Shown here: positions 2,904 to 47,284 of the stretch, in pieces
Layout: every line of letters starts with the position of its first letter
Numbering within the stretch: the stretch's first letter is position 1
Virus record (IMG/VR): IMGVR_UViG_3300011013_003468
Location: 1 to 57,401 of that record
Source of the DNA: a virus
Lineage: Duplodnaviria; Caudoviricetes
Strand: one strand, 5' to 3'
Length of the DNA stretch: 57,401 bases
Notes under the pieces: model-generated
Databases searched by the model: none
Told to the model about the DNA's origin: nothing
The model's input: only the letters and a program-made list of their open reading frames with translations
Made by a program: the position numbers and the translations under genes

Positions 2904-2921
2904 ACATATAAAAAAAAAGTT

Positions 2922-3809: not shown

Positions 3810-4051
3810 AAAAAATAAAAATTTATTATCAAGATTTTAAAAATGATTTTATAAAAATATCATTAAAAAATTTTATAAAATTATTTTCATTATTAATTTT
3901 AACAAAAGATAAAGATAAAATATTTTTTATTATAAATAATGAAAAATATACTATTGAACAGCTCAATATAATATTTCAAATGCAAAGTGAAAAATTTTTA
4001 AATTTAAAAAAATTTATTAAACATTTAAATAAAAATAATTTAAAAAAATAA
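3806..4051 (+). CDS. hypothetical protein, candidate immunity protein
   Basis: 81 aa; ATGA overlap with the upstream toxin-like gene. The role is inferred from position only. Confidence 0.4.
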   Translation: MKKIKIYYQDFKNDFIKISLKNFIKLFSLLILTKDKDKIFFIINNEKYTIEQLNIIFQMQSEKFLNLKKFIKHLNKNNLKK

Positions 4052-14704: not shown

Positions 14705-15411
14705 TGAAAACAAAAGATAGATTTAAAGGATTTGATTGGATGAAACCCATATTAAATAATGAAGCACCAATAATAGAAATAATAGGTTGTGGTGGTATAG
14801 GTAGTAATCTTGCTTATTTATTAGGAAGAATTGGATATAAATTAGAAATATCTGATTTTGATATTGTTGAACCACATAATCTTGGTGGTCAATTTTTTGC
14901 TAATAATCAAATAAATATAAAAAAAGTAGATGCTATTAGAGGTGTTTTGAAAGCATTTACTTCTGATTCAGATTATAATAAATATAGAGATGAAAGAAAA
15001 AACAAAATATCAAGACGTTATACTGTAATGGCAGTTGATAATCAATCAACAAGAAATAATTTATTTAATCATTGGAAAGAGAGTTTACTTAATGATCCTG
15101 ATAATAAAGATAATACATTTCTTATAGATGCTTCTTTAACAGGTGAAACCTATCATTTATATTATTTAGATAAAAGAACATCTGAAGAATATATTCTTAA
15201 ATATAAAGAATATTTAGATAAAATTATAAAAAATGAAATTGGTTGTACAGTAAAACAAACAAGTCATATTGCAATGAGATTAGCTGCTGATATTACTGTT
15301 TTGATTAATAATTATTTTAGTAATAAAATTAATAAAAAAGATTTTAGAAAATTATATTTTCATAAATCTTTTAATGCAGTATTAAATAAAGACGAAATAG
15401 AATATTATTAA
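14704..15411 (+). CDS. E1/ThiF-family adenylyltransferase
   Basis: IIGCGGIGS, DFDIVEPHNLGGQ, KKVDA, AVDN, candidate catalytic C181 (IGCTVKQ); TAATG overlap with JAB. Confidence 0.92.
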   Translation: MKTKDRFKGFDWMKPILNNEAPIIEIIGCGGIGSNLAYLLGRIGYKLEISDFDIVEPHNLGGQFFANNQINIKKVDAIRGVLKAFTSDSDYNKYRDERKNKISRRYTVMAVDNQSTRNNLFNHWKESLLNDPDNKDNTFLIDASLTGETYHLYYLDKRTSEEYILKYKEYLDKIIKNEIGCTVKQTSHIAMRLAADITVLINNYFSNKINKKDFRKLYFHKSFNAVLNKDEIEYY

Positions 15412-19912: not shown

Positions 19913-22900
19913 TTATTTTTTCTTTTTTTCTTTTTTCTTTTTTTCTTTTTTTTCTTTAATTAATTTTCTATCCCAATAATCTTTTGAAGGTATTGTCCAA
20001 TCTTTTTTAGTATAATTTCCTAATCCTCCATAATTAACAAAAGCAGGAATAAATGCTCTATTAGTATCTCTTAATAAAGGATGTTTATTATTTTTTGTTT
20101 TATTTAATTCACCAAAAATACTTTTTTCTATATCTCCTAATAATTTAATTACATTTTGTAACCAAGTTACTAAACTTATTTGACTATAATTATTATAAAT
20201 ATCTTTTGGCTTTGCATATAATGTAGCATTACTAATAAGATTCATTATTTTATTTTCAAAAAATAAATATAATTTATGTTTATATTTACCTTCTTCATCG
20301 TCATCATCATCCGCACCTCTTAAACTAGATAACATTAATTTAAATGCAATCATTGCTAATAATATTGATATATCAGCAATATTAGCTTGTAAATTTTTAG
20401 TATCTAATTCATTTAATTTTAAAGATTTTAAATTAGCTTGCCCATATTTTGTTGCGATTCCAAATAAATGTAATGGTGTAAATAATGATTTTTTTAATAT
20501 ATTAAAACTAACAATAGCTAATTCTTTAATAAATCCTATTTCAGTATTAACATTATTAAAAGAAGCTATTGTTGCACCTAATGCTCCTGTAATTAATGAT
20601 GTAATAGGACCTCCTATAAGACCTATAGTTGCACCAAAAATTCCTCCACTAATTGGTGTAAATGATCTATATCTACCTTTTACTTTTTTATCTTTAGTGA
20701 AAATACTTTCTTGTTCAGTAGCAAATCTTTGCCATATTTGATTTGGTAGCCATGTTTTAAATAATGATACTGCTCTACCTGCAGGATTTGATTTTAGTAA
20801 CATACCACCCAAAGATTCATAATCACCATGAATACTTGCTATTGCTTGTAATACTTTATTTTTAAATGTATTATAATTATCTCCTTTAAAATTTTCCCAA
20901 TTATCTATATTTTCTTGACTTCTAAATTCTTCTTTTAATCTCAATGTATCATTTACTACTTCAAAAGCCGTAAATTTATTACCATCAAAAATAGGAACTT
21001 TTTCACCTGTTTTTGCATTAGTTATATAAGTATCTTGTAATATTGCTAATACATCAGCACCTTGATTTCTAAATTCTATTGAAGAAATTGATATATGATA
21101 TGGTGATAATTTATGTATATTTCTAAATCTTGATTTAACAGAATTTTTTTGTAATTCATTAGATGTATCTTGAAGAATTTTATAATCTTCTATAATATGT
21201 TTTAAAATATCCCATTGTTTAGCAAAATCACTATGCTTATTTATTCTTTTTCTAAATCCTTGACTAACAAATAATTCTGCATGACCCATATTACCTGGTG
21301 TCCAATATAATCCTGATGTATCTGCAATCATATTAGCAAATTTTCCTTCAATTCTATTTGTTATAGCTGAAGAAACATTATACGCTAAACCTTTAAATAT
21401 TATCAACGATAATATACCATCTACTATTGAACCTATAGATAATCTATCACCTACATTATTTATTATATTATTTATTTTTTCTATTTCATCAATTAATTCT
21501 TTTTGTTTTGCTTTATCAGTATTTGTATTTTCTAATTTTTTTAATTCTTTTAAATAATTATTTCTAATTCCTAAAAATTTTTTTACTTCTTTAAATTCTT
21601 CTTTTGATACTAAAGCACCTGTTTGTAAAAACATAAAAAATCTTTTAAATATTTTTTTATCATAATAAGGTTTTTTTGTTTTTAAACCTGTAAATATTTT
21701 TTCACTTATTTCTTTATTTTTTCCTTTAACTAACCTATTATAAGCAAATTCCATTCTTTTATTAGCTCTTACTCTTTCTTTATCAGTTCTATTTAATAAT
21801 TTTTCTATTAAATTCATAACACCTTTTATCTTCGTATTTTTTTCTATATTAGTATAATATTCTTTTAAAGTATTCATTATAGGTTCTGTTTCTAATCTTG
21901 CATTATATGTTGCTGCTGCTGTTAATGCTGTTCTAATAATTCTTGGTATATCTTGTGAACTTTCATTTGTTATTCTATTTAATGCTATTTTATACATTAA
22001 TTCTTTTACATCAATGTTTAATATACCTATATATTTTTTTAATAAATTAATATCGGGTTTTACATTAAATTGTTCTGCTAAAAATGTTAATTGTGAATTA
22101 GTTAGATTATGAATATTATTGATAATATCTTTACCATTTATTGATTTCCAATAAATTAATAATTTATCTATAGTTGTTTTTAATTCTGTTTGTTTCCTAT
22201 CATAAAATTTTTTATTTATACCTTTATTAACTATTTCATTATCATAAATAGTTTTTGAAATAACAAAATTTTTACTAAAACTATTTAAAAAATTCTTAAA
22301 TATTGATTTCTTTTTTGAAGATATTGTTCCTTTTTTATTAGAATCTAACATTATTTCAATAAATGTATTTTCTATTGCAGGTATAGAACTAGCAGGTAAA
22401 CTATGATATTGATCAGAAAATGTAATATTTATATATTTTAATGCATCTTCTAATGCTTCCCAATAGTTATATAAATCTTCATCTTCTAAAATATATTTAA
22501 AATCTTTATTATAATATCCAGTATCTTTTTCTATTTCTTTATTTGTATATGCATCTTTATATTTTATCTTTTGCTTAGGTAAAAATGTAGTATATCTTAT
22601 ATCTAATGTATATCCATTATCAGAAAGACCATGATTTTTTTCAAAATATTTAGCTACATAAAATGGATTAGATAATTCGTTTTTATATTTTAAATAATTT
22701 TTAATTTTTTCTTTATGCTCTTCATCATCTTTAATTCTTCCATCTATTAATTCTTCACTAACATTAGATTTAGCTCTAAATTCTTCAATATTTTCTATTA
22801 TTTCTTTTATTATTTTATTATATAATCTTGGATTAAGAATTTTTTTTAAATTTTCAGTATATTCTTTATCTTCTTCTAAAAATTCTTCAAATTCTGTTCC

Positions 22901-25900
22901 TTTATATTTTTCTACAATATCAGTTAATTTATTTATATCTATTATATTGGCATTCTTTAATAACCACCTATATTTTGGTTTAACATTTTTTTCTTTTATT
23001 ACTTTATTTTTAAAATCTTTAAACCATTTAGGGCTAAATATATTTATTAATTTACCTGTTTTTGTTCCATCTAAATTCTTTTCAAAAAATATATCATAAG
23101 ATGTTGCTGTAATTCCTAAACTTTTATATTCCTTTAATTTCTTTTCTACTTTTAATTGAACTGTATCTAATTTATTTAATACTTTAGCCATATCACCATT
23201 AGCTTCATCAATAGCCTTTCTCATTTCGCTTAACATTATTTGTGGAATAAGACTATCTTCTGAAAAAGTATTTGTAGATAAATTTTGCATCATCATATCC
23301 CAAATACTAATATCTGGTTTATTTTTTATTAATTTTTCTATTGTAAGTCCTTCAAAATTTTTTAATAATGGTGAAGTTGATAATATTTCATTGACTTTAT
23401 CAGCTAATATATTTTTAAGTTTATTTTCTATACCTATAAAATCATCTTTTATTTTATATAATAAATCTTTTATTTCTTTTAATGATTCATCTACTCCTAT
23501 CATTTTTAATAATTCTTTCGTAAATAATAAATTCTTATTATCTATCTCAAAATTTCCAATATTTTTATAAAAATTTATAATATTTTGTATTTCAATTTTA
23601 TTTTTAATTGGATCTTTCATTAAAATATTCTCAATTAAATATTTATGATCATTGATCATACTATTTAAAAATTTAATATAATCTACATTTTTCTTTTTTA
23701 ATAATTCATATATATTATTTAAATTTTCTATTATATGATATAATTTAGATATTTCTGTATCTAATTCTTTTATCTCTTTTGGATTACTATTTCTTTTTTT
23801 AATTCTTAATCTATTTATTCTTTGTTCTAATTCTTTTATATTAGTATTTAAAATATTTTTAAAATTATTTTTTAAATCAATTATATTTGAATTTAAAGAT
23901 AAAGGTAAAAGATCTTCTTCATCTAATGTATATAATGTAGGAACAAAATCATCACTAAAATTTCTTTCTATAATATCATTATTATTCATTACTTTTTTTA
24001 TATATTCTTTTGATGGCGCTATTACTATTTCGTTTGTATTATTATAAAAATCATAATAAACTATTCCAGAACCATAATCCATATTTATTTTAGATGCTAC
24101 CAATTCACCATTTATACCTTTTTTAATAATTAATGAATCATCTTCTATTCTATCTAAATTATTTCTATATCTATTAAAAATATCATTTATAATTAATTTT
24201 TTTATTCGTTCTTTTTCATTTTTATAAGATTTTTGATTTGGATATGGGATTGTTTCAGTAGGATAATCTAAATCAATTCTTAATAAAAATGCATCAGCTA
24301 AAGTTCTTCTTAATCTTTCTTTTGTTGCTTTTGCTAAATTATTAAAAGATTTTATAATCCAGTGAATAAATGTTTTCCACCATCTATTAGCTTCACCTTT
24401 TTGTAATATAACTTGATTTGTTACTTCTTCTACTAATTTTTCTTTACTTCCCCATTTTTCAATACCTTCTCTCACAATAGGTGTATCTTTAAACCATTCT
24501 AAATATTGATGTACATACTGATATGGTAAATAATATTCATCTTCTTTTTTATCAGAATTATCAACTATTGCAAATAATGCATTTAAATTATTTTTATTAT
24601 CAATATCAAATTTTATATTTTTTAAATTTATTTCTGGATATAATTCTTCTAAAATAGTAGTTATATTATTATTTATTTGTTCTTTAATATCTTCTGATTT
24701 TTGATAAAATATATTATCGTTAGATTCATTAGAACTTAAATCTATTTTTTTATTACTATTTAAAACAAATTTTGTTAATTCTTCTAATGTAGTATTAGGA
24801 TTGATATTTTTTGAATCTATTTCTGATAAATTAAATAATTGTTTTATATAATCTATTAAATTATTCCAAAACATTTTAATTTTATCAATCAAATTTTTAT
24901 CTTTTTGTTTATCTAATTTATTTTTAGCATATAAATCAATAGCTCTTGCTATATATTCATGATCTTTATTAGAAGTATAGTTTTTATCTACATAATCAAC
25001 TACTTGTTTATTACTTTTAGCTTCTTCTAATAAATTATTATATAATTCAGGATTAGTCTTTTCTATTTGTAATAAAAAAGGATGTGTGAATATCTCGTGT
25101 ATAGCACTTGTTTTATCAGCTTTTCCTTTTACTAAATAAGCTTTTTTAGTTTCGGAATTATAAAACCCTGATGGTATATCACTATTATTTTCTTGATAAA
25201 AATTTTGTCCTTCTAATTTTTTATTTATTTGATATTTATTTTTTAAATAATTAGATAACCATTCTAAAGCATCTTTTCGATTTGTAAATTCTAAATTAAT
25301 TTGAGCTTCCATAGCAGCTTTAACGATATTACCTAATTCCTTTCCAGTTTTAAATCCTAAAGCTAATAAATCTTTTCCTGTTATTAATGGTTTTATTTTT
25401 TTACTATCTCCAAATTCTTTTTTAAATTCTTTAAGTAATTCATTAAATTTTTTAATTGTTTCTGGTACAGGTGTATTTTTATTATTTCTGCCTAACATAT
25501 CTGCTTCCATTAATCTTACTAATTCTTCAATAGATGCACTTTCTAATCTTTTTGATAACTTTATAAAAGCAGATTTTTGTCCTTTTATATCTTGAATAGA
25601 TGTTATAGTAGCATGTGCTAAATGTTCTTTTATAATAGGAATGACTTTTTTTATTATAGAATTTCTTATTCCTAATTTTTTTAAAAATTTTTCACTAATT
25701 TCTGCACTTTTTGCTTCATGACCTCTTGATGTTATTACTTCTCTATTCTTTTTTGGTACAAATGTTTTTTTTGTAGTATCTATTTTTCCAATATCATGTA
25801 GTAATGCACTAAACATTAAAACTGCTTTTTCATCTGCATTTAAATTTTCTCTTTTAGCAATATTATTTGCAACATTCATTACCTGTTTAGTATGTTCTTC

Positions 25901-28900
25901 TACATCCCCTTCAGGATGATACTCAAAATCTTGTTCTATATCTTTAAGTTTTATTAATTTTGGGAAATATTTTTTACCAATACCTGTATCTCTTAAAAAA
26001 TCAAATATTAATTGAGGATTACTCCCTTTAATAGCCCATTTTAACCATTCTTGTTCTATTCTTTCTTTAGGTAATTCATCTATCATATTTTTTTCTACCA
26101 TATCACGGATTAAATTAGCTGTTTCTGATGCCAATTTATATCCCATTCTACTTTGAAATTGCATAGCTCTCAAAATTCTCAATGGGTCTTCTTTAAATTT
26201 ATCGCTAACATGCCTTATAATACCTTCTTTTAAATCTTTAATTCCCCCATAATAATCGTACAAAGTTTTGCTTATAGGATTATACCCTAAACTGTTCCAA
26301 GTAAAATCACGTCTTTCTGCTGCTTCTTTTATAGTGATATTTTTATCAAATTCTGTTTTGAATCCTGTATATCCTTTACCTGTTTTATTTTCTCTTCTTG
26401 GTATAGAAAAATCAAACGGCTCTTCTATATCTACTAATTCAGTAGTACCTTTTTTATAAGGTATAAACTTTAATATTCCAAAACTTTTTCCTACTTCATT
26501 TACTTTACCATATTTCTCTAATATAGATTGTAATTCTTCTAAGGATACATTGTATATTTCTATATCAATATCTTTAGGTTTTTTACCTAATAAAGCATCT
26601 CTTACAGCTCCTCCAACAATAAGAGAGTTCATATTCTTATTATTTAATTCTATAAGTACAGGATTAAGTAAATTTAATAATTTTTCATTTATTGGTATAT
26701 CTACTTTTTGTTTTTCTATATTTTTTAAATTTTCTAACTCTTTTATTATTTTTAATTTCTGTTCAAAAACATTTTTGCTTGAATTAAGAATTTCTTTAGC
26801 ATTTTCTTCACTAATTAATTCAACAGGAATATTAAACCTATTACTTAAATCACTAGCAAAATTTTCTAAAGTATTTTCTATTTCAGATTTAGTTACTTTT
26901 TGAAATGGAAATTCATCTACATCAAAAAGATTATTATTATTATTAATAGGTTTTACTTTACTCCTAATTAAAATTCTTGGATATTTACGCATTCCTTCTT
27001 TTAATGCTGCTATTTTGACATTAGCTTTTATTTTAGGATCATCTTCTTCATTTTCATTATTTATTACTTCTTCATAAATATCATTTATATCTTTTTTTAA
27101 ATTATTATAAGTTATAGTAGGTTTTTTTTCACCATTAACTTCCAAATCTTTTAATTTTTTTTCAATTACTTCAACTTGTTCTTTTAATTCTTTTATTAAT
27201 TCATTATTTTTATTACTATATTTTTTACCATAAGATAATAATTTTATTCTTTTTTTTAATTTAACCATTTTTTTTATTAAAGTATAACTATTATTATCAT
27301 TTTGCACTTTAATTTTAGGTTCAATTAATTTGCCATATCTTTTATCTAATATATCATTAATACCATCAATTAATTTTTTAGTAGAATAAGGTACATCATC
27401 ATCATATTCTATTCTAAAATTATTATAAGTAAGAGCTATAGCTAGTTCATTATGATCGTATGTTAATTTATTTATTATATTAGTTAAATTTGGTTGTACT
27501 GCATTTAATGATTTTGATTCAGGTGCTTTAGTATAACTAATCCCTGCTGTTTCTTTTTTTAAATATTTATCAAAGTAAGCATACGAATCCCAAACACTTC
27601 CGCTATGAACATCTCTGTTTGCAGCCCATTTAATATCTTCTGATTTAGGAAATATTTTAATTCTTATTTTATTACCAAAACCTTCGAGTTTAGTAATTCT
27701 TTTATTAATTGGTTTAGTAAGTGCTGATACAATAAATTCTATTTTTGCTTTTTTATTATCTTCAATATTATTTAATAAATTTTGAAGCATTAATTCTAAA
27801 TCAAAATTTGAATATCCTCCTACAATTGAATAAAATCCTTGCCCTCTACTATATATTTCTTCCGGATTATATATAATATTATTAGTTTTTAACCATTTTT
27901 TTATAATTTTTATAGATAAGTTAAAATCTTTGTTTATTTCTGCAAACTTTTCTAATTCATCATCTTTAAATATATCTTCATTTTCAATTTCAAATTTATC
28001 AACTGGTATTACACTATCATCATAATCATCTAGATTTATTTTTTTTAATTTAAATAATTTAGTAATATGATTATTTGCTTCTTGATAAGTTTTAAAAGTT
28101 TTATTATCAGGTGTAGTATATATTACTTCATAACCTGGTAATATTAGTTTAGAATTTCTATAAGCTAATAAATCAGCTAAATTACCTAAAGTCATATCTG
28201 GTCTTAATTCTTCTATTTTAACTTCTCTTTTAGAAAACAATGATTTCATATAATCAGTCATTTGTTCCCATAATTCTTTTAATAGAGAAATTAAATTTTT
28301 ATCTTTAACTTTATCTAATCTATCAGCAATATATTCACCTAATAATTGAACAATAGCTTCTTCTTGTTGCTCTTCTAAAGAATATTTTTTTTCTACAATT
28401 TTTACATTTGGAAAATTTTCAGAATTTTTTATGTATTGTTTAAATGTATAATAATCTCCAAATTCTATTTTTTTTTCATCTCTATATTTAAAAGATAGTT
28501 CTTTATATTTGTAGTATTTTTTAACTCTATCTAAAACTTCTTTACCTCTACCAGTTTCAAGTTCTTTAAGTAGGCTTTGATATAAAGATGTTTCTTCATT
28601 AAAGTTACTAATTGGTTCACTTTTAATATCTTCAAGCATCTGCTTATAAGATGCAGCATGTCTGTCAATAGTTTTATCAGAAACAGCAGCTCTATTTTCA
28701 CCTCTCTCTAGTTGTGCTTTAATTCTTTTTTTAGCTAATTCGGGATTTAATTCCATTAATTTATATTGAATATTAGCTGTAGGTATTTCTTTTTTAATAG
28801 CTCTTATGAATGGTAATCTCTTTTCTTTCGTTAAATTAGTAGTATCAAATACCACTTGTTTACCTTCTTTTAAAGCATTTATTGCTCTTTTAGCAGCTTC

Positions 28901-31900
28901 AGCATAAATTTCTTTATCTTTAGATTTATCATTTATATTACCTGTAAATTCTACTCTCATTGCATCAGGTTCTATAACTACTAAATTTTTTTGAGGTAAA
29001 GATTTGATAAATGTACTTTTACCACTTCTACTTGTTCCTATAGGTAATAATACATCAAACTTATATTGTCTATTCTTAATAGCTCTAATAATAGGATGTC
29101 CTAATATTTCGTGTATAGGAGTATCTAATGTTGCATGATTTAAATTTATTATTGCTGTATTATCTTTTAAATAACCTTTATAATTTTTATTATTATCTAA
29201 CCATTCTTCTGCATCTTCCTTTGAATTAGCATAATATATATCTTTATTTTTAGATTTTATTTCATTGTCTATTACAATCCATTGCCCATCTCTATATATT
29301 ATTTGTGGATTTTCAAATTCTATATCTAAACCAATTCTATAAGCCATTCTTTCAGCTAAATCTCTAATAGTTTTTTCAGAAGCTACATAATCTTCATCTG
29401 ATTGGTTAGTATTGTTTTGGTAATAAATATTATCATCTGAATTTTTCTTTACATTATTATAAGCTTCCTTTAAAGCTCTCATAAATCCTCCATTAGGACC
29501 TTCCCAAAATTTATCTCCAAATCCTTCATGTGTTGATTTATTTAAATATTCTAAACCTCCTCTTTCATCTATACCTTTTATTAATTCAGGATGCTGCTCA
29601 AATTTTAATTCGAGAATACGAACTATTATGTTAAAAGATTTAGATATATCTGCTTTAAATCTTCCTCTTGGTTTAAATACTCCTTTATTTCCTTGTCTAT
29701 AAGCAAGATCATCAAATTTACCTGATTTAAAAGTTTGATAAGCGTGTTCTGAATTTTTAAATATATATGTTTTTCCTGATTTTGTTTTTATTTTAATTTG
29801 CAAATTATTTCCAGGATTAGTTAATTTTCTAGCAAATTTAGAGCCTTTACTTGTTATATTTTCTCCTTTTATATTTTGTTTATTTTTATTTTCATTATTA
29901 TTTAAAATTAAAGGACTTAAATCTGCATCATTTATTTTATCTTCAAAAACATTATTATCTAAATTTATTAATCCTATATTTTCTTTTTTTAGATTTAATT
30001 TGTCTTCTTCTGCTAAATATAATTCTAATTTCTTTTCATTTATATTTTCTTTTTTTAAATTTTCTATATTAGATTTAAATTTATATATATTAGTTTTAAT
30101 TCTAACTTTTGATTTAGCTCTTGTTATAGCTGTATATATCCATCTATTTTTATTCCATTTATCAGATATCCAATCAGCATCTATATATACATTATTCCAC
30201 TCATTACCTTGAGATTTATGTGCTGTTATACTATATCCATAAGTAGCTATATTAACTTTTTTATCCCAAATATTTTCTTTACCATTATAAAAAGAAAATG
30301 GCTGTTGATGAAAAAATTCATTTGTTAATAATTGAGATCCATGTAATGATGGAATAGGTAATTCAGGAAATAATAAGGTATAAGTGCTAACTTCTTTATT
30401 ATTTAATATTGTATCATGATATATCAATATTCCTTTTAATTTTATATTTCTTGGATTAAATTCAGTACCAACATTTATTTCTTCTTCAAATTTTTTTATT
30501 ATTTCTGGATTTTTTACAGTATATATGTCACTGTTCATAAATGCATTGTTTGAAACAGAAATTAATTTTTCATTATTGTTAATAGCATTATTAGCTTTAT
30601 CACCATATTTAACTTCTCTTATTTTTCTATTATAAAAAAGTCTATTTTTATTTGTTGATACTATTACAACATATTCTTTATTATTTTTAAAATCATCAAC
30701 TAACTCTTGTCCAAAATTACTTACTTTTTTAAATTCATCAGAATTAGGATTATATATATTATCATTATTTGTTCTTAAATCTGTAGCTGATAATAATATA
30801 TCACCGTCTTGTCTTTTTACTTCTTGTAATTCATATTTATTTTCTTTTTTAAATATTTCTTTATTCCATTTAAATAATTCTGGATTTTTGCCTACAGGTT
30901 CTAATTGGAAACCATCACCCAAAAATATTATTTTATTATTACCTAATTTAGCTTCTTTTATTAAATCATTTAATATTTTTTCATCTATCATAGAAGCTTC
31001 ATCAATAATATATACTTCATCATTACCTAATCCTTTATTAATCCATTCACCTGTTTCTGGATCTGGTGAACCATATAAAACTTTATGTATTGTAGAAAAA
31101 TTATTATCATCTTTATCAGCATTGAATTTTTCTTTTAATCTTTTAACAGCTGCATTTGTTGGTGCTAATAACATTCCTTTTGAATAATTAGCTATATTTT
31201 CTGCAATAGTTGTTTTACCTGTTCCTGCAAAACCCGCTAATAAAAAGAAATTATCATTGGAATTTAAAAAATTTTCTATTTTTAATAAAGCATTCTTTTG
31301 ATCATTAGTATATATAATTTTATTTTTTCTCATACCTAAAATAGAACCTGATATATTTCTATTTAATTTATTTAATATTTTTTCTCTTTGACTTCCACTT
31401 TTATATACTTCTCGACCTTTTGATGTTTTATTTAAAGAAATAATTCTATTATCGTTTAAAATAAAATATTTACTATTGTTATATTCTATAATTCTATTTT
31501 CATCATATTGCTGCTTAATAAGAACTTTATTTTTAATTGTTTCATCGGTAACTTCTTTACCATTTTTATAAACCATTTTACTATCAGGCATTATTATTAT
31601 TTCATATTGGTCTATTTTAAATGTATTAGAAATAGATTTTTTAGTTTCTGATTTTTCAGATTGCTTTGATATTTCTGTTTTTTCTAAATTATTGTTTAAA
31701 TATTCTATTGCTTTATCATAAGAATCTATAAATTTATTACTATTAATAGCTTTAAATAATAATATCGGTTTTTTAAAATTTTTAGAAGCATATTTTAATA
31801 TTTTATTAATTATATTTTTTTTTAAAAAATCTTTTGATAATTCTGTTAATTGATTATTTATATTATTAATATTATCATTATAATTTATCTTTTCATCATC

Positions 31901-32128
31901 TAATATTCTATTTATTATATCTATTTTATTTGTAGGAATATTTTTACCTTTTGTTATATTCCATATTTTATATGCAACATTTATTGCAAATAAATCATTA
32001 TCTTTTCTCTTATTACGTAATTTTACTGACTTAAATTCTTCTATGCTTAATGGCTTTCCATCAAACATTTTAACAATTGAATTAAAATCATTTCTTACTT
32101 CTATATCATCTATTTGTGGACAAAACAT
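19913..32128 (-). CDS. 4071-aa polyvalent virion (ejection) protein: SF1B helicase, NADAR, zincin-like peptidases, polynucleotide kinase, CCA-adding enzyme/HD, membrane-spanning C-terminal region
   Basis: AGFAGTGKTT/DEASM/TAHKSQG/YTAITRA; FKNSEHAYQ..KFEQHPEL..DKFW; HEILGH; GTSRSGKST..DTTN; VGGAVRD..DID..RRDFT..EDPLR..LLHDIGK; HEIFTH; glycine-rich hydrophobic helices; adjacent to the virion RNAP. Confidence 0.88.
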   Translation of the reverse strand: MFCPQIDDIEVRNDFNSIVKMFDGKPLSIEEFKSVKLRNKRKDNDLFAINVAYKIWNITKGKNIPTNKIDIINRILDDEKINYNDNINNINNQLTELSKDFLKKNIINKILKYASKNFKKPILLFKAINSNKFIDSYDKAIEYLNNNLEKTEISKQSEKSETKKSISNTFKIDQYEIIIMPDSKMVYKNGKEVTDETIKNKVLIKQQYDENRIIEYNNSKYFILNDNRIISLNKTSKGREVYKSGSQREKILNKLNRNISGSILGMRKNKIIYTNDQKNALLKIENFLNSNDNFFLLAGFAGTGKTTIAENIANYSKGMLLAPTNAAVKRLKEKFNADKDDNNFSTIHKVLYGSPDPETGEWINKGLGNDEVYIIDEASMIDEKILNDLIKEAKLGNNKIIFLGDGFQLEPVGKNPELFKWNKEIFKKENKYELQEVKRQDGDILLSATDLRTNNDNIYNPNSDEFKKVSNFGQELVDDFKNNKEYVVIVSTNKNRLFYNRKIREVKYGDKANNAINNNEKLISVSNNAFMNSDIYTVKNPEIIKKFEEEINVGTEFNPRNIKLKGILIYHDTILNNKEVSTYTLLFPELPIPSLHGSQLLTNEFFHQQPFSFYNGKENIWDKKVNIATYGYSITAHKSQGNEWNNVYIDADWISDKWNKNRWIYTAITRAKSKVRIKTNIYKFKSNIENLKKENINEKKLELYLAEEDKLNLKKENIGLINLDNNVFEDKINDADLSPLILNNNENKNKQNIKGENITSKGSKFARKLTNPGNNLQIKIKTKSGKTYIFKNSEHAYQTFKSGKFDDLAYRQGNKGVFKPRGRFKADISKSFNIIVRILELKFEQHPELIKGIDERGGLEYLNKSTHEGFGDKFWEGPNGGFMRALKEAYNNVKKNSDDNIYYQNNTNQSDEDYVASEKTIRDLAERMAYRIGLDIEFENPQIIYRDGQWIVIDNEIKSKNKDIYYANSKEDAEEWLDNNKNYKGYLKDNTAIINLNHATLDTPIHEILGHPIIRAIKNRQYKFDVLLPIGTSRSGKSTFIKSLPQKNLVVIEPDAMRVEFTGNINDKSKDKEIYAEAAKRAINALKEGKQVVFDTTNLTKEKRLPFIRAIKKEIPTANIQYKLMELNPELAKKRIKAQLERGENRAAVSDKTIDRHAASYKQMLEDIKSEPISNFNEETSLYQSLLKELETGRGKEVLDRVKKYYKYKELSFKYRDEKKIEFGDYYTFKQYIKNSENFPNVKIVEKKYSLEEQQEEAIVQLLGEYIADRLDKVKDKNLISLLKELWEQMTDYMKSLFSKREVKIEELRPDMTLGNLADLLAYRNSKLILPGYEVIYTTPDNKTFKTYQEANNHITKLFKLKKINLDDYDDSVIPVDKFEIENEDIFKDDELEKFAEINKDFNLSIKIIKKWLKTNNIIYNPEEIYSRGQGFYSIVGGYSNFDLELMLQNLLNNIEDNKKAKIEFIVSALTKPINKRITKLEGFGNKIRIKIFPKSEDIKWAANRDVHSGSVWDSYAYFDKYLKKETAGISYTKAPESKSLNAVQPNLTNIINKLTYDHNELAIALTYNNFRIEYDDDVPYSTKKLIDGINDILDKRYGKLIEPKIKVQNDNNSYTLIKKMVKLKKRIKLLSYGKKYSNKNNELIKELKEQVEVIEKKLKDLEVNGEKKPTITYNNLKKDINDIYEEVINNENEEDDPKIKANVKIAALKEGMRKYPRILIRSKVKPINNNNNLFDVDEFPFQKVTKSEIENTLENFASDLSNRFNIPVELISEENAKEILNSSKNVFEQKLKIIKELENLKNIEKQKVDIPINEKLLNLLNPVLIELNNKNMNSLIVGGAVRDALLGKKPKDIDIEIYNVSLEELQSILEKYGKVNEVGKSFGILKFIPYKKGTTELVDIEEPFDFSIPRRENKTGKGYTGFKTEFDKNITIKEAAERRDFTWNSLGYNPISKTLYDYYGGIKDLKEGIIRHVSDKFKEDPLRILRAMQFQSRMGYKLASETANLIRDMVEKNMIDELPKERIEQEWLKWAIKGSNPQLIFDFLRDTGIGKKYFPKLIKLKDIEQDFEYHPEGDVEEHTKQVMNVANNIAKRENLNADEKAVLMFSALLHDIGKIDTTKKTFVPKKNREVITSRGHEAKSAEISEKFLKKLGIRNSIIKKVIPIIKEHLAHATITSIQDIKGQKSAFIKLSKRLESASIEELVRLMEADMLGRNNKNTPVPETIKKFNELLKEFKKEFGDSKKIKPLITGKDLLALGFKTGKELGNIVKAAMEAQINLEFTNRKDALEWLSNYLKNKYQINKKLEGQNFYQENNSDIPSGFYNSETKKAYLVKGKADKTSAIHEIFTHPFLLQIEKTNPELYNNLLEEAKSNKQVVDYVDKNYTSNKDHEYIARAIDLYAKNKLDKQKDKNLIDKIKMFWNNLIDYIKQLFNLSEIDSKNINPNTTLEELTKFVLNSNKKIDLSSNESNDNIFYQKSEDIKEQINNNITTILEELYPEINLKNIKFDIDNKNNLNALFAIVDNSDKKEDEYYLPYQYVHQYLEWFKDTPIVREGIEKWGSKEKLVEEVTNQVILQKGEANRWWKTFIHWIIKSFNNLAKATKERLRRTLADAFLLRIDLDYPTETIPYPNQKSYKNEKERIKKLIINDIFNRYRNNLDRIEDDSLIIKKGINGELVASKINMDYGSGIVYYDFYNNTNEIVIAPSKEYIKKVMNNNDIIERNFSDDFVPTLYTLDEEDLLPLSLNSNIIDLKNNFKNILNTNIKELEQRINRLRIKKRNSNPKEIKELDTEISKLYHIIENLNNIYELLKKKNVDYIKFLNSMINDHKYLIENILMKDPIKNKIEIQNIINFYKNIGNFEIDNKNLLFTKELLKMIGVDESLKEIKDLLYKIKDDFIGIENKLKNILADKVNEILSTSPLLKNFEGLTIEKLIKNKPDISIWDMMMQNLSTNTFSEDSLIPQIMLSEMRKAIDEANGDMAKVLNKLDTVQLKVEKKLKEYKSLGITATSYDIFFEKNLDGTKTGKLINIFSPKWFKDFKNKVIKEKNVKPKYRWLLKNANIIDINKLTDIVEKYKGTEFEEFLEEDKEYTENLKKILNPRLYNKIIKEIIENIEEFRAKSNVSEELIDGRIKDDEEHKEKIKNYLKYKNELSNPFYVAKYFEKNHGLSDNGYTLDIRYTTFLPKQKIKYKDAYTNKEIEKDTGYYNKDFKYILEDEDLYNYWEALEDALKYINITFSDQYHSLPASSIPAIENTFIEIMLDSNKKGTISSKKKSIFKNFLNSFSKNFVISKTIYDNEIVNKGINKKFYDRKQTELKTTIDKLLIYWKSINGKDIINNIHNLTNSQLTFLAEQFNVKPDINLLKKYIGILNIDVKELMYKIALNRITNESSQDIPRIIRTALTAAATYNARLETEPIMNTLKEYYTNIEKNTKIKGVMNLIEKLLNRTDKERVRANKRMEFAYNRLVKGKNKEISEKIFTGLKTKKPYYDKKIFKRFFMFLQTGALVSKEEFKEVKKFLGIRNNYLKELKKLENTNTDKAKQKELIDEIEKINNIINNVGDRLSIGSIVDGILSLIIFKGLAYNVSSAITNRIEGKFANMIADTSGLYWTPGNMGHAELFVSQGFRKRINKHSDFAKQWDILKHIIEDYKILQDTSNELQKNSVKSRFRNIHKLSPYHISISSIEFRNQGADVLAILQDTYITNAKTGEKVPIFDGNKFTAFEVVNDTLRLKEEFRSQENIDNWENFKGDNYNTFKNKVLQAIASIHGDYESLGGMLLKSNPAGRAVSLFKTWLPNQIWQRFATEQESIFTKDKKVKGRYRSFTPISGGIFGATIGLIGGPITSLITGALGATIASFNNVNTEIGFIKELAIVSFNILKKSLFTPLHLFGIATKYGQANLKSLKLNELDTKNLQANIADISILLAMIAFKLMLSSLRGADDDDDEEGKYKHKLYLFFENKIMNLISNATLYAKPKDIYNNYSQISLVTWLQNVIKLLGDIEKSIFGELNKTKNNKHPLLRDTNRAFIPAFVNYGGLGNYTKKDWTIPSKDYWDRKLIKEKKEKKKKEKKKK
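25250..26690 (-). other. domain: class II tRNA nucleotidyltransferase (CCA-adding) with HD domain (approximate bounds)
   Basis: VGGAVRDALLG-KDIDIE, PRRE, RRDFTWNSL, EDPLRILRAMQF, ERIEQEW, HPEGDVEEHT, LLHDIGK, LITGKDL. Confidence 0.92.
28600..29065 (-). other. domain: polynucleotide kinase-like P-loop kinase (AAA_33/Pnkp kinase; approximate bounds)
   Basis: PIGTSRSGKSTF, EPDAMR, VVFDTTNL, lid AKKRIKAQLERGENR. Confidence 0.8.
29440..29870 (-). other. domain: NADAR/YbiA-like hydrolase (approximate bounds)
   Basis: LTNP, FKNSEHAYQTFK, ILELKFEQHPEL, DKFWEG..GFMRALKE. Confidence 0.75.
30090..31320 (-). other. domain: Dda/RecD2-like SF1B helicase (approximate bounds)
   Basis: GFAGTGKTT, APTNAA, STIHK, IIDEASM, GDGFQLEPV, EVKRQ, YSITAHKSQG, YTAITRA. 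Confidence 0.92.
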
Positions 32129-32158: not shown

Positions 32159-35100
32159 TTAACAATTTTCATGTTCATTATCTAATATATTTTTTAATAT
32201 AGATAATTTTTTATTTATTTCTTCTTCTTCTTTATCTTTTTCTTTTTTTATATTCTTATTCATATTTTCTTCAATTTTATTTTCTTCAATTTTATTTTTT
32301 TCAACTTTATCTTCTTTTATTTCTTTTTCCTTTATATTTGATTCGGTTTTCTTATTATCTATTAAATTTTCAGGATAATATTCATTATATACAAAATTCA
32401 TAATTCTTATTGCTGCTTCTTCAGCTAATGAACCTTTTTTAAATATTCCTAATTTATTTAAAAAGTTTCTAATTGCATTAACAAATTTACTAATAATATT
32501 TTTCCCTTTATATTTTTTAGAATTTAATAATTGTATAAAATTTTTATTAGTGAACATACCTGTTATAAATTCTCTAACATTATATAAAGGATAAAATGCT
32601 TCTTCTTCAGGTGTTAAACTGACTTCTAAATTAGATAAATTATTAATACCTTGAATATGCATCTTATCTAATTTATTTTTCATAGAGATATAATAGGGAT
32701 TAGTACTAAATAATTTTAATGCTTCTATATATATATTTCCTAATTCTTTAACATGATCTGGTGCATTAGGATCTAATATTAATCTTCCATTTGATTTTAT
32801 AAAATATTTTTTTAATTCATCACTTGTTATACTATGAATATATTCATGAAGTAAATTTATTAATAATTTACTTGGTGTATTCGATTCATTTGGATTTAAT
32901 ATAATAGTACCATTTTTATAAGTACCTTTTGCGTTTAAAGAACTATCAAATTTAATATGTATTGTTGATTTATTAAATTTAATAAATTCTGTTATCAAAT
33001 CTTTAAATCTTTTATTATTATCATTTAATATTGATAATATATATCCTAACAATTCTTGTAATTGATCATTATCAATATAACTTTTAATTTTTTGTAATTT
33101 ATCTTCTTTTGTAGTATTACTAATAGATGCTTCTTTTGATTTTTCTATTTCTTTTTCAATATCTATTGCTAATAAACTATTTTTATTAAAAATTTTAATA
33201 TGACCTCTTTTAATCGTAGGTATTTCTATATATTTATTATTTATTAATTTATATAATTTATATCTTTTATTTTTATCATCTGTTTTTTGGTATTTGGCTA
33301 TAAATTCAGGAACTAAATCTGGATTTTCAATAGCTTGTTGTTCTAATTCTTTAATTTTATTATCATCTTTAACTTTATATGCGTATTCAGGATAATTTTG
33401 AAATAATTGTGTTATATAATTTGTTATATTTGTAGATAAATTAATAAAATCATTATAATTAAATAATTCTTTAGTAGCACCTATATTTTTAAAATAACTA
33501 AAAGGAATATATTTTGTAAATTCAACAGGACCAGTTTGTGGATTAGTTAATAAATTATAATTTATTAAATCTTGTGCATAATCTCTACTTGTATAAAAAC
33601 TTTCTATTTTATAATAATATTGTGGTTCAGTATATCCTGTATATCCCAATTCATTTAATTCTTCTACACTAAGTTTCCCATAATTAATTACTTTATAACT
33701 TTTACCATTTAATTTAAATTTTCCTCTTTCATTAATTTTTAAATCTAATTTATTTTCTTTACTTAATATTACATTAGCATTTGAAGAAATAATAGGTTCA
33801 AAAATTTTAGAATCTAATTCTTTATAATTAGCAGTATCATAATTATAATCTGGCAATTCTATATTTGAAGCTATTAACTCATCTATTGCAGAATATAAAG
33901 CATCTTCATATAGTAAAGATCCATTTGTGTTTACAAATTCTATTGTTGAATATTGACCACTCTTTTTAGCAATTTTAAAATCTAATCTTTTTAATAATTC
34001 ATTAGAAAATATCGGATGATTTCTATTTTTTAATAATTCTGAATATAATGCTAAAGATATATTATTTTTGGTATCTAATAACAATCTATTTCTTTCATTT
34101 TCTATAGTACCAGAATAAAAAGGTAAAATATCATCAGTTAATAAAAAATTTTTAATATTCGCCCAAAATATTTTACTATATTCTTTTTTCTTGTATTTAT
34201 TAGTTGCATTTGATGATGCTAAAAATTTATTTAATTCATTGTGTAATAAGAAATTAAATTCAGGATAATAAGAACTATAAAATTTTATAGTTGTAGACAA
34301 TCCTTGTAGTACCATATTAGATAAATAATTACTAGGTTTTATAAGAGTATTATATATTTCTATAAAACCCATATCTAAATACTTATTCTTATCAACAGTT
34401 GATGTAATTGGTATTACTTCACCTAATAAAACATTAGGATTTTCAAACAATCCGTTTGGAGATATTAAATATTCTAAATTATTAACAAGATCTTTTATTT
34501 CTGTAAAATCACCTGCCAAACGCTTAGATATATCCAAAGCTGTTACTGTATTTAATAATACATCATTATATTGACTCAAATTAAGAAATGTTTTTAATAT
34601 TATAGCTTGAAATTCTTTATTAGGATTAGTTAAATTATTTATTAAATCTTCTACATTTATAATTTTATCAGTATTTATATTATCAAAATTTTCTATGTTG
34701 TATTTTTTTAATATTTTTTCTAATAATTTACTTTCAGCATTGGCTTCATAATCTGAACTAGCAGCTTTTAAATTTTCTATCTCTTTAACATATTCTTTAA
34801 TAATAGGTTGTGATAAAAAATAATATGATAAATAAATATTACCTTGTGAACTTTTTGCTTGATCAAAGCCTGCTAATGTTAATAATTCATCTACATTTAC
34901 TGTATGTTTATTTAAATTAACTTTACCTAATACATTAGCTTTCATATTATCTACCGCTGTTTGTACTCTTTCTTCTATTACTTCTGTTATATTTCTATTA
35001 CCATCTAAAGTTTTTATTTTTCCTAATTTACCATCAAAACTTATAATGTTACCTTCAATATCTTTAAATTTTGGAAATATACTTGGATCTGATACTTTTA

Positions 35101-38100
35101 AAGTTTCATCTATTTGTTGTAATAAAGAACTAAAATTACTTTCTAAAGCGTAAACACCAATTAATATAGAACCAGATGAACCTTTTTTCATTGTATCATT
35201 ATGATATTCATCATCAAATATTCCAAAATTATATTTTGTTCTACCTTTATTTATTAATTTATCTATTGTATTTGCTTGATTTATAGCTTCATCTAATGGC
35301 AATACCTTTAATATTTTTCTTTGTACTTCTTTTTGTGGTGAAGCTAATATTTGATTATACATATATATAATTTCATTTTCAATAGATTTTTTAATTTCTT
35401 CTTTTTTTTCTTTTATTTCATTTTCAATAGATTTAATTTTTTTTCTTTGTTCTTTTTTAGATAATTTTTTAAATTCATAATTTTCTTTTACATTTTCACC
35501 ATTCTTCTTAGCTTCTAAAAAATCTTTTATAAAATCTGATTTATCTAATTTATATAAATATTTATATTTTTTATATTTATTTTTTAAATCATTTAATTCT
35601 TCTGTTAAATTATCTATATTAACATCTTTATTATATTTTGTTATTTTACCATCTTCATTTATATCATACCAGTAACTATATGTAAATTCTTTATCAAAAT
35701 CAAAATCTAATCCTTTTGTTTTTAATAAATTATCAGGAACAATTATAACATCTCCTTGTACTTCAGGTAAAAATCCAGCTATTTCAATTGCTGCACTTAA
35801 TGAATGACTTGATGTTGGTATTCTTGTACTAATTAATTCTAATAATTCATCATCTATCATTCCTGGTTTTAAAACTTTCCTTTTAGTTTTTTCATCTATT
35901 TCCCAATATTTTTCATCTGTAATATCTATTAACTTATTATTTTTATCTTTAAAACGTGATGGAACAAAAACTTGGAATCTTTGTAAAACTTTTTTACCAT
36001 TTTTATCTTTTATATAAGAATTTTGTAATCCTTTTTCAAAATCAAATTTATTAGTATATATAATATTATCTAAATCTATATTTTTAGTATCTGCTATTTC
36101 CCACCCTGCTGATGATGAAGCTATATAAGAATATCCAGGAAATTTTAATTTTAAAATATTATTTCTAACTATTGATATTAATAATGCTTGAAATTTTTTA
36201 CTGTCATTAAGCATCCATAAAGGAATATCAAAATATATTTTTTGTTCACCATTTTTTTCTTCTTTTGTTTTATAACTAATACTATCAATATCACTTGTAT
36301 TTAAATTTCTACTTTTAGCTTCTTTTTTTATAAGTTTTATTAAATTTTTTACAAAAATCTTATTATTAGCATTATTATTTAATGAAAATCCTAATTCGTC
36401 TTTTAATTGCTCTGTTATTATATTTACTAAATTTATAAGATATTCTTCATGTTTTTCTCTTAATTCTTTACCTGTAATTGCTTTATTATGATAATTAAAT
36501 ATAAAATTAGTAAAACCATTGCCAAACATTAATTTACTTAATTGAGTTACCATACTTACAGTATTTGGCTTATTTTTACCTGCTTTATACGGTGCTTCTT
36601 GTTGTATTCTAAAATAATTATTTGATAAAACTAAACTTGCTTTTTTTAATTCTTCTATTGTTAAATCTCTAATAGTATTATTAGGATGATATATATTTAA
36701 TGGTTCTTTAATATTCCCTAATTTTGTAGCAGTACTATATGAAGCAATAACATTTTTATTACTATCGTTTTCTAATTTTTCTAATGCTCTTCTTAATTTA
36801 TTTATTTCTTTACCAATAGTTGTCTGTGGTATTAATACTATTGCTGCTGATTTTATATAAACTAATCTATTAGCATCATTTTCTTGATCAGGTATAAATC
36901 CTCCATATACAGGTTTTTCATTTTGTAATACTAAATTTAATTCTTCTTCTGATAATAAATCTTCTTTTTCTAATTTTAGACCTTTATTTTCTTTTTCAAT
37001 TTGTCTATTAATTTTTTCTAATAATTTATCATAAGTTTTTCTATCTATCTTACCATAAGTTAATAAATGATTTAAAGCAGTTCTTGCTGTTTGATATTCT
37101 TGAGCATCAGTATCTTCTATTTCCATAAAATATGATAATATATTTTTACTATCATATTGTAAAATAAGATTTTTTAGATAATCAATACCTTCTCTTAATT
37201 GTGATTCTGTATCTTTAGATACATTTGGTAATTTATTTTCTAATAATAATGTTAATTCATTTTGTGTTTCTTTTAATAATTTAGTTAATTCTGTAACTTT
37301 ATTACCTATTTCATTACCATAATGTAATGATGCTATATATCCTAAATTATCTGATAATTTTATATTATCTTTTAAAAATACTCTTATATGACTTGAATTT
37401 CTTGAATTTTCAGAAACTATACCAGGAGCTATTAAAATTGCTAAACGTTTACTAACATTATCATAAGCTTTATTTAATACACTTCTAATATTAGTACTTT
37501 CCCACGGTTTTTCTTTATTATCCAATCCTTTTGTGTATAATGCTAAATCACCTGCATATAATTGGAATATAGCAGAATTATGCAAAATATCATTTACTAT
37601 ATAATCTGCTACTGCTATTTGTGTATTTTTTAAACTTTTAAATTCGCCTCCTATTTTTGATATATAATTATTAGAAAATTTGATAGATTTTCCCTTTTCA
37701 TCTATTATGCCTAGTTCTACTAATTTTTTTAATTTTTTATTATATTTAGATAGTAACATACTATTTAAAATATTATAAAAATTTTGTCTTGAATCTTCTA
37801 TAACATTATCCAAATTACCTTTTGAAAATAATTCTTGTATATGTTTTCCATCTATTCTAACATTATTTAATTCCTTAATTGAAAATATTAATCCTGATTC
37901 TTTATAATTAGCAATATTGGGATCTTTATTTTCAATAAGAATATTATACATTCTTTTAATTTCAGGAACAACTACTTGTTCATATATTACTTTTAAAATT
38001 TTATCATCAAATTTTTTTAATTTTTTATTATTTTCAAAATTCAAATGACTTTCTTTTATTTTTAAAGCAGGAAGTAATAATAATAATTGTTGTGTTTTAT

Positions 38101-47282: not shown

Positions 47283-47284
47283 AA

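Follow-up and report, generated by a model that had tools for sequence, protein, structure and literature searches.

The 57,401-nt viral sequence IMGVR_UViG_3300011013_003468, the whole of which was analyzed (hereafter the window), encodes on its minus strand a 4071-residue protein, P0001, directly downstream of the gene for a giant crAss-like virion RNA polymerase protein, P0002. The reading that we favor, with slightly more confidence than doubt, is that P0001 is the last member of a virion-packaged RNA-polymerase cargo set, in which a conserved core carries ~2650 amino acids (aa) of enzyme cassettes that would act at entry, before phage gene expression. This reading is built on the domains, motifs, family, synteny, and cysteine suppression of the protein, from which its packaging, ejection, cleavage, and substrates are predicted. 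The phage is a crAss-like podovirus, with the Flavobacterium Fipvunavirus phages as its nearest named relatives. Judged from its sequence, P0001 is a polyvalent protein as defined by Iyer et al. 2017, grafted onto a crassvirus polymerase-associated cargo protein: it contains at least two unrelated effector-type domains (helicase, NADAR, kinase, CCA-adding, and HD) in addition to three zincin-like modules, and its cassettes lie between the cysteine-bearing N terminus and the core. The features of the open reading frame (ORF) and of its junction with the upstream gene are the following.

32159-44794, minus strand: upstream ORF P0002, 4211 aa, with a crAss-like virion RNA polymerase region and, at the C terminus, a zincin-like module (HEYIH)
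32162-32164, minus strand: TGT codon of the final P0002 residue, Cys4211, 39 nt upstream of the P0001 Cys3 codon
19913-32128, minus strand: whole ORF P0001, 4071 aa plus stop, ATG start (ORF list)
32120-32122, minus strand: TGT codon of Cys3, the sole cysteine of P0001
30029-31861, minus strand: SF1B Dda/RecD-like helicase, aa ~90-700, motifs intact (Pfam, PHROG, NCBIfam, motifs)
29414-29911, minus strand: predicted NADAR-fold domain, aa 740-905, with SEHAYQTFK including the Glu and Lys (AlphaFold2 model and fold match)
27929-29416, minus strand: zincin-like module 1, aa 905-1400, with HEILGH (aa 1006-1011) and EEAIVQLL (aa 1256-1263)
28592-29068, minus strand: Pnkp-like P-loop kinase nested in zincin-like module 1, aa 1021-1179, with GTSRSGKST, EPDAMR, and DTTN
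26879-27946, minus strand: conserved domain of unassigned function, aa 1395-1750, conservation peaking at ~aa 1395-1610
24569-26878, minus strand: zincin-like module 2, apparently split, aa 1751-2520, with HEIFTH (aa 2344-2349) and HEYIARAI (aa 2390-2397)
25259-26731, minus strand: predicted class II CCA-adding nucleotidyltransferase and HD phosphohydrolase, aa ~1800-2290
24029-24691, minus strand: degenerate zincin-like module 3, aa 2480-2700, with YQYVH in place of the HEYAH of orthologue P0004
19919-24094, minus strand: gp65/gp49-family core, aa 2679-4070
20324-21442, minus strand: stretch with three hydrophobic windows (aa 3563-3581, 3828-3855, and 3917-3935)

Of the relatives recovered by searches with aa 3300-4071, P0004 (2812 aa) and P0005 (2867 aa) are long, and a further 28 are shorter, mostly 1400-2140 aa, without Pfam domains, and located on contigs of 88-100 kb; no relatives of the C-terminal 695 aa were found in IMG/VR. 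By tblastn the core was found in 29 Flavobacterium Fipvunavirus phages, the match in Fpv1 being ANB40276 (1596 aa), encoded immediately after a ~4400-aa "structural protein." A hidden Markov model (HMM) made from 26 relatives, with P0001 left out, matches aa 2679-4070 at 874 bits. The family HMM matches Fpv1 ANB40276 at 471 bits, crAss001 gp49 at 88 bits (three collinear stretches), and phi14:2 gp65 at 60 bits (collinear), bit scores being the measure for the gp49 and gp65 matches because the E-values refer to sets of 7-10 proteins. Against the PDB the core-family profile (A2) gave coiled-coil noise only. The core is helical and holds the three hydrophobic windows, past which lies an acidic DDDDDEE patch at aa 3940-3946.

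P0002 was identified as the crAss-like virion RNA polymerase protein from its matches to crAss001 gp50, the IAS virus "RNA polymerase," and other crassvirus genes (aa ~2836-3066, 93 phage records) and to phi14:2 gp66 (aa 2547-3062), with gp50 in turn matching PDB 6VR4, the solved phi14:2 polymerase, at 6e-32. P0002 also corresponds to PHROG 16227 (4.3e-139), and the DFDFD motif of its polymerase region is found at aa 3030. In the window, Fpv1, crAss001, and phi14:2 alike, the polymerase gene is followed on one strand by a core-family gene, and the gp49/gp65 core family is annotated "RNA polymerase associated." P0001 is encoded inside a same-strand block with this polymerase and with ORFs that have PHROG "virion structural protein" matches. 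The phi14:2 record annotates gp65-gp67 from tandem mass spectrometry proteomics. The three phi14:2 proteins are placed in virions and described as fused in some phages, with a zincin-like domain in gp65 (preprint 10.1101/2020.03.07.982082), and gp47, gp49, and gp50 are listed among the proteins that mass spectrometry identified in crAss001 virions (PMC10172136). Core homology to virion proteins, synteny, and cysteine suppression support packaging and delivery, and P0001 is probably packaged and delivered ready-made into the cell, a prediction for which the support from homology is good. A statement in PMC10172136 that a homologue of gp49 has a crystal structure was not adopted, because here it is gp50, and not the gp49-family profile, that matches 6VR4.

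A preliminary description of this DNA had claimed a single 4071-aa ORF at 19913-32128, a crAss-like virion RNA polymerase as its neighbor, packaged products of the large genes beside such polymerases, and a long helical C-terminal region with hydrophobic helices. The ORF (minus strand, ATG start), the matches of P0002, the presence of the relatives gp65 and gp49 in virions, and the helical core agree with these claims. Every domain that it listed is present, and in the N-to-C order that it gave, according to Pfam, PHROG, NCBIfam, fold matching, motifs, and alignments to relatives.

P0001 has one cysteine against 25.9 expected (Poisson P 1.5e-10), its enzyme domains included, the expectation being scaled from the window's 24 other ORFs, with 49 cysteines among 7695 residues. 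Two cysteines are present in P0002, at positions 1026 and 4211, and none in the neighboring 828-aa and 645-aa ORFs. Cysteine suppression is a conserved feature of the ejected proteins and the ejection operon of N4-like phages, for which the idea has been cited that passage through the periplasm selects for it (PMC11445570). Because all enzyme cassettes of P0001 share this suppression, the constraint on ejected proteins seems to apply to the entire chain.

At the junction of the two genes, P0002 ends in ...ENC (TGT TAA) and, 30 nt on, P0001 begins with ATG TTT TGT. Within the core family a cysteine occurs in the first 8 residues of 27 of 31 proteins and in the last 6 residues of none (0/31). 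A common N-terminal leader of P0001 and the core family was also sought and was undetectable by HMM, the MxC motif alone being common to them. Among proteins that carry the unassigned domain of P0001 (120 listed of 147), an N-terminal cysteine is present in 102 of the 115 that start with Met and a C-terminal cysteine in 67 of 120, with 19 internal cysteines in 171,061 residues; for those that also hold the core, the corresponding terminal counts are 18/19 and 0/19. Junctions were further collected from 37 related IMG/VR loci (numbered within L003-L044, retrieved with alignment A3; L005/L006, L013/L014, L030/L031, and L017/L038 are near-duplicates) as consecutive same-strand ORFs of at least 300 aa, giving 51 junctions with the following cysteines.

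Upstream cysteine in the last 8 residues and downstream cysteine in the first 8: 44 of 51
Neither cysteine (chain ends): 6 of 51
Downstream cysteine only: 1 of 51
Upstream cysteine only: 0 of 51

Control ORFs have an N-terminal cysteine in 7 of 125 cases and a C-terminal one in 12 of 125, and in a second control set each was seen in 1 of 29. The pattern holds without deviation in phi14:2, where the sole cysteine of gp67 (1797 aa) is its last residue, gp66 has Cys3 and Cys2179 of 2180 residues, and gp65 has Cys3 only. In crAss001, the only cysteine of gp47 is Cys2339 (of 2341 residues) and that of gp49 is Cys5, whereas gp50 has three, at 5, 1334, and 2404 (of 2412). Fpv1, Rudgehvirus jaberico, cr114_1, cr271_1, and IAS virus have the cysteine pair at the junction that precedes the last giant ORF. 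In IAS virus there are more internal cysteines, and the polymerase is without an N-terminal one. The named phage genomes with the terminal pairing thus number seven. In each chain, the last protein is without a C-terminal cysteine. An intein or intron at these junctions was considered and rejected, as the gaps are in most cases too short for either (-17 to 25 nt) and the positions of the cysteines vary. Some Cys-to-Cys junction gaps in L005, L026, and L029-L031 measure 700-1500 nt and not <30 nt. In cr114_1 (NC_055897, L043), the annotated giant genes have 9, 69, and 38 in-frame stops under table 11 with the terminal cysteine pair kept; the in-frame stops indicate that a stop codon is translated as an amino acid in the late genes of this crassvirus.

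A tentative explanation of the pairing, to which we give a little less than even credence, is that crAss-like polymerase-associated cargo proteins are joined head to tail by disulfides between terminal cysteines (Cys4211 of P0002 with Cys3 of P0001), would exit the virion as one ordered thread, and would separate in the reducing cytoplasm. Gene fusion and terminal disulfide would then be interchangeable ways of obtaining an unbroken chain, with the enzyme cassettes as extra wagons. The pairing suggests how several megadaltons of cargo protein could be ordered for ejection. We found no literature report of a head-to-tail terminal-cysteine disulfide in these proteins; Bayfield et al. describe other disulfides in crAss001 virions in a text that does not contain the word "cysteine," and the phi14:2 preprint (10.1101/2020.03.07.982082) contains neither "cysteine" nor "disulfide."

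The N-terminal cassette is an SF1B helicase of the RecD/Dda type by both family models and helicase motifs. Pfam matches cover aa 276-677 (AAA_30, 4.4e-21, 75.9 bits against a cutoff of 27; AAA_19, 5.1e-15; UvrD_C_2, 9.3e-12, 45.1 bits against 27.4), PHROG 325 "Dda-like helicase" covers aa 88-693 (1.6e-62), and the NCBIfam RecD2 model matches at 6.1e-29. Walker A, DEAS, GDxxQLxPV, and TxHKSQG were all located, and a 5'-3' polarity is predicted.

The identification of the adjacent domain (aa 740-905) comes from its fold, since Pfam applied to eight segments at E <= 10 gave no NADAR (PF08719), peptidase, or LPD-type match, and this domain had no Pfam match of any kind at that threshold. A phmmer search of 1.84 billion representatives returned 201 proteins at E <= 1e-3, and most of the best 150 of these 201 relatives are 1000-6500 aa long; the ESM Atlas points to NADAR and Phage_30_3 clusters at 0.91. 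In an alignment of the P0001 domain with 22 short relatives (A1), 9 of 23 sequences match PF08719 weakly (best E 6.3e-4), and the best PDB match of the A1 profile is YbiA (2B3W, E 0.07). The AlphaFold2 model computed on A1 has a pLDDT of 89.7, and the top ranks of a Foldseek search with it are the three NADAR entries 2B3W, 8BAU, and 8BAT. Structural alignment with VIA-align resulted in Z values of 12.0 for 8BAU (rmsd 2.7 over 134 residues), 11.4 for 2B3W, and 7.0 for 8BAT, with the next row at 2.9. SEHAYQTFK (aa 793-801) is aligned with the corresponding stretch of YbiA, and the catalytic Glu and Lys of sEHxxQxxK are present. According to the model, aa 740-905 form a NADAR fold, with a predicted glycohydrolase activity. 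Phage NADAR proteins have been described to counter DarTG1 by stripping ADP-ribose from DNA (PMC11257639), and NADAR genes occur among virion genes (PMC9503650).

Both zincin motifs of P0001, HEILGH and HEIFTH, have the form HEXXXH and not HEXXH. In polyvalent proteins, the most frequent hub domain is a metallopeptidase (zincin) module, one clade of which has the HEXXXH form (PMC5512222). Neither Pfam (to E <= 10) nor the PDB gave a direct match to the zincin-like modules of P0001, and these were characterized by comparison with each other and with relatives. Segment-wise BLAST reveals a duplication (aa 1242-1359 against 2377-2493, E 7.5e-14), which is not visible in a self-BLAST of full P0001, where off-diagonal matches were absent. 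Zincin-1 aligns with P0005 in two pieces, with ~40 residues of P0005 replacing aa 1021-1179 straight after the HEILGHP helix, indicating that the kinase is an insertion nested in zincin-1 just past the metal-binding helix. Zincin-2 aligns (E 5e-6) with a module of P0004 that passes the Pfam SprT-like model (29.8 bits against a cutoff of 25.6), with a one-residue gap within the motif. An HMM of the zincin N-terminal half matches aa 1751-1817 (3.6 bits) and aa 2279-2356 (10 bits) over complementary profile ranges, and also the C terminus of P0002 (HEYIH, aa 3983, 9.8 bits). Zincin-3 matches its P0004 counterpart at E 1.3e-33 and, reading YQYVH where P0004 reads HEYAH, is predicted to be degenerate and hence inactive.

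The kinase (aa 1027-1162) matches Pfam AAA_33 (6.1e-17, 62.7 bits against a cutoff of 27), a family broader than the polynucleotide kinases, and NCBIfam TIGR04075 "polynucleotide kinase-phosphatase" (2.1e-6, 26.3 bits against a cutoff of 750 that is set for the whole three-domain protein). Its closest PDB chains are 4JST, 4GP7, and 4GP6 (E about 1.4e-3), which we take to be the kinase domain of Clostridium thermocellum Pnkp, and the alignment pairs the P-loops, EPDAMR with SSDFCR (Asp-x-x-Arg), and DTTN with DATN. The earlier claims of a polynucleotide-kinase-like domain inside zincin-1 and of a degenerate zincin-3 therefore stand, the former on the P0005 alignment, AAA_33, and the Pnkp-type PDB chains. 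For zincin-2 the zincin and the CCA/HD enzyme that it was said to contain were both found, whereas the nesting of the one inside the other is weakly supported by the two HMM matches.

The "unknown domain" of the preliminary description is present but is better described as a very conserved, unnamed family. Its relatives at E <= 1e-3 form 147 clusters with 39-62% identity (proteins of up to 2238 aa), ~50 columns are invariant across 45 sequences, and in many aligned relatives the domain comes after an HEILGHP-type zincin module. Precomputed Pfam labels in these proteins (120 listed of 147) include ART-PolyVal, NADAR, DUF7831, AAA_33, RNase H, and SF1 helicase families. The domain had no matches in Pfam or PHROG and no usable one in the ESM Atlas, its family profile (A4) had none in the PDB at E <= 10, and a tblastn search of 50,697 deposited phage records with the domain gave none either. 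Together with its HEXXXH zincin partner, this domain represents a large uncharacterized family and a clear target for structural and biochemical work.

The nucleotidyltransferase with its HD domain matches Pfam PolyA_pol (3.1e-21, 76.4 bits against a cutoff of 23) and HD (6.2e-10, 39.8 against 22) and PHROG 2244 (3.7e-72), and aa 1833-2219 match positions 1-354 of the 409 in NF008137, "multifunctional CCA addition/repair protein" (5.3e-56; 190 bits, where the equivalog cutoff is 451); specificity for CCA over poly(A) cannot be inferred from the PolyA_pol, HD, and NF008137 scores. In a phmmer search of the PDB with full P0001, the only chains returned were those of CCA/poly(A) polymerases and helicases. 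The strings GGAVRD, DIDIE, RRDFTWN, EDPLRILRA, and LLHDIGK were located, the first four of which we take to be CCA-adding-enzyme motifs and not motifs of toxin nucleotidyltransferases.

The cassettes vary between relatives. NADAR is found in 6 of the 37 related loci, helicase in 3, kinase matches in 10, and CCA/HD in none, making the last peculiar to this phage. The cassettes of orthologue P0004 are ART-PolyVal, SprT-like, and AAA_33, and most core-family orthologues carry no such cassettes, which fits the idea of variable cassettes. In L013/L014, L020, L005, L010, L028, and L033, NADAR and/or helicase is located at the C-terminal end of the ORF upstream of a junction, unlike in the window, where they are at the N terminus of the downstream protein; cassettes thus occur on either side of the junction.

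The recurrence of the domain junctions in independent contigs (zincin-1, unassigned domain, and core in P0005; kinase, zincin-3, and core in P0004) bears on whether the giant ORF is one functional protein at all, and not an assembly chimera or a decaying fusion with unpackaged cassettes. The sequence is a single metagenomic contig, and the only public run containing it, a subsurface metagenome, is probably its source rather than independent support. However, at the G+C content of the window (16-27%, about 20% overall), a stop is expected about every 10 codons, as estimated from composition, ruling out chance for a frame open over 12.2 kb. With cysteine suppressed over all domains, catalytic motifs intact, and an N-terminal MxC that fits the family pattern, a chimera or decaying fusion is very improbable.

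If P0001 is one cargo protein, it would be packed in the capsid together with P0002, threaded out unfolded ahead of or with the DNA, and refolded in the cell, where active zincins may cut it into separate enzymes. These would act at the entry site before phage gene expression: the helicase would open the incoming DNA, NADAR would remove ADP-ribose from exposed bases, and the kinase, HD phosphoesterase, and CCA-adding enzyme would restore RNA ends. A role of the cassettes as an anti-defense repair kit is plausible on these predicted activities. Delivered in this way, the enzymes would let a crAss-like phage bring DNA-opening, ADP-ribose-removing, and RNA-end-healing functions ready-made, before its genes are expressed.

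Several observations weigh against this reading. The NADAR and zincin modules are not recognized directly by Pfam, and the matches of the kinase to Pnkp are weak, at E 1.4e-3 for the PDB chains and, for TIGR04075, at 2.1e-6 and below the curated cutoff. CCA/HD, absent from all 37 related loci, is a one-off here. Phage polynucleotide kinases, HD-type phosphatases, and CCA-adding enzymes are RNA-repair parts that usually accompany ligases (PMC7824862), and neither the Pfam and NCBIfam scans of P0001 nor the PHROG or Pfam scans of 29 other ORFs listed an RNA ligase, leaving P0001 alone unable to finish anticodon-loop repair; the window spans only 57.4 kb, compared with 88-100 kb for the contigs of relatives. 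An example of 6 copies per virion is given for each polymerase-associated protein in PMC10172136, and with ~6 copies, action on the entering genome fits better than repair of the bulk tRNA pool.

The same enzymes could instead serve early transcription, the helicase unwinding the template, the kinase, HD, and CCA-adding domains processing the ends of early phage RNA, and NADAR clearing template adducts. The polymerase of phi14:2 (gp66) transcribes single-stranded or denatured DNA and not double-stranded DNA, and its structural relative QDE-1 requires a helicase and RPA (preprint 10.1101/2020.03.07.982082). P0001 comes straight after the polymerase and its core family carries the polymerase-associated annotation, and a helicase next in line may open the template for the single-strand-dependent polymerase. 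In L013, L014, and L020, the ORF immediately upstream of the dyad-bearing one has a helicase at its C-terminal end. In the window this place belongs to the polymerase protein; in those loci the upstream ORF did not match the polymerase query. Neither a CCA-adding enzyme nor a 5' kinase is known to have a role in phage mRNA synthesis, no tRNA genes were found in the window, and most family members manage without these enzymes, which are therefore dispensable for transcription as such. A purely transcriptional role is a real but lesser possibility.

A further alternative, which we regard as unlikely, is that the domains are offensive effectors of host takeover, with the nucleotidyltransferase or kinase modifying or blocking host tRNA or other targets and NADAR degrading ADP-ribose-derived immune signals. 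The domains of polyvalent proteins are predicted to target several host macromolecules and systems on delivery (PMC5512222), phage NADARs have been argued to act mainly on low-molecular-weight ADP-ribose derivatives (PMC9503650), and orthologue P0004 contains an ADP-ribosyltransferase. On the other side, phage NADARs that were tested de-ADP-ribosylate DNA (PMC11257639). The best family match of aa 1833-2219 is a protein of housekeeping type, and the head-domain strings are those of CCA-adding enzymes and not of toxin nucleotidyltransferases.

The genes around P0001 are arranged in two halves. The plus-strand half of the window holds replication genes (DNA polymerase, primase, helicases, and a Sak4-like protein), and the minus-strand half is a virion block made up of a 1520-aa protein (PHROG 15100 "virion structural protein," 3.1e-203), proteins of 645 and 828 aa, P0002, and P0001. 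The cysteine-free 828- and 645-aa ORFs (44796-49222, minus strand) lie between the 1520-aa protein and the polymerase protein and occupy the position of the crAss001 cargo genes gp45 and gp46, the likeness here being by position alone. At 13886-15411 on the plus strand, adjoining ORFs have a weak Prok-JAB match (E 7.4e-4, below cutoff) and a ThiF/E1-like match (7.1e-12) and may form a pair for ubiquitin-like conjugation or deconjugation; a ThiF annotation is found on a gene of Fpv1 as well.

When compared with single known enzymes, the NADAR domain of P0001 shares its fold with T4 AdfN (gp30.3) and other phage anti-DarTG1 NADARs, and the Glu-Lys spacing of seven equals that of the AdfN residues mutated as E36 and K43 (PMC11257639). 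AdfN is small and stands alone, whereas the P0001 domain is embedded in a probable virion cargo protein and is too diverged for a direct Pfam match; the words "virion" and "packaged" are absent from the text of the AdfN paper (PMC11257639). The P-loop, Asp-x-x-Arg, and DxTN of the kinase align with the bacterial Pnkp kinase domain (4JST and 4GP7), and the layout of nucleotidyltransferase head and HD domain fits the multifunctional CCA enzyme of the E. coli type (NF008137). In contrast to these enzymes, all P0001 scores are below the equivalog cutoffs, and the kinase and, apparently, the CCA/HD domains are nested within zincin-like modules of a giant protein; the Pnkp-type phosphatase and ligase that would complete the likeness to Pnkp and T4 Pnk/Rnl were not found for P0001.

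Among delivered proteins, the virion RNA polymerase of N4-like phages (Schitoviridae) and their ejection proteins resemble P0001, as it is predicted to behave, in being giant, virion-packed proteins codelivered with DNA, with a zincin module (zincin-like in P0001) and strong cysteine suppression (PMC11445570, PMC5512222); they are described as wholly cysteine-free, whereas here one terminal cysteine is conserved. The two systems also differ in their unrelated polymerase families, that of the crAss-like phages being of the two-barrel type. The N4 virion polymerase is a single-subunit, T7-like enzyme. The homologues of the core, phi14:2 gp65, crAss001 gp49, and Fpv1 ANB40276, are likewise encoded directly downstream of the virion polymerase gene and have few cysteines, one of them near the N terminus (ANB40276 has a second cysteine, gp65 and gp49 have no other), and gp65 has an HExxH motif that the preprint calls zincin-like (10.1101/2020.03.07.982082). 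These proteins are 1349-1596 aa long, whereas P0001 has ~2650 extra residues with five enzyme-type domains; the cassettes matched none of phi14:2 gp65-gp71, eight crAss001 proteins, and two Fpv1 proteins, a comparison in which helicase, kinase, and CCA/HD were not run separately. Compared with the polyvalent proteins of Iyer, Burroughs, Anand, de Souza, and Aravind (2017, PMC5512222), P0001 differs in that NADAR, CCA, polynucleotide kinase, RecD, and crAss are not mentioned in the main text of that work, and in that its zincins and unassigned domain match no Pfam model (PolyVal and LPD models included, if in the library). It resembles them in combining many unrelated catalytic domains in one giant polypeptide, in its setting among virion genes, in its interspersed modules with zincin-like motifs, including HEXXXH ones, and in its predicted delivery with DNA. 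If P0001 is delivered as predicted, the polyvalent-protein idea would come to include the polymerase cargo of crAss-like phages.

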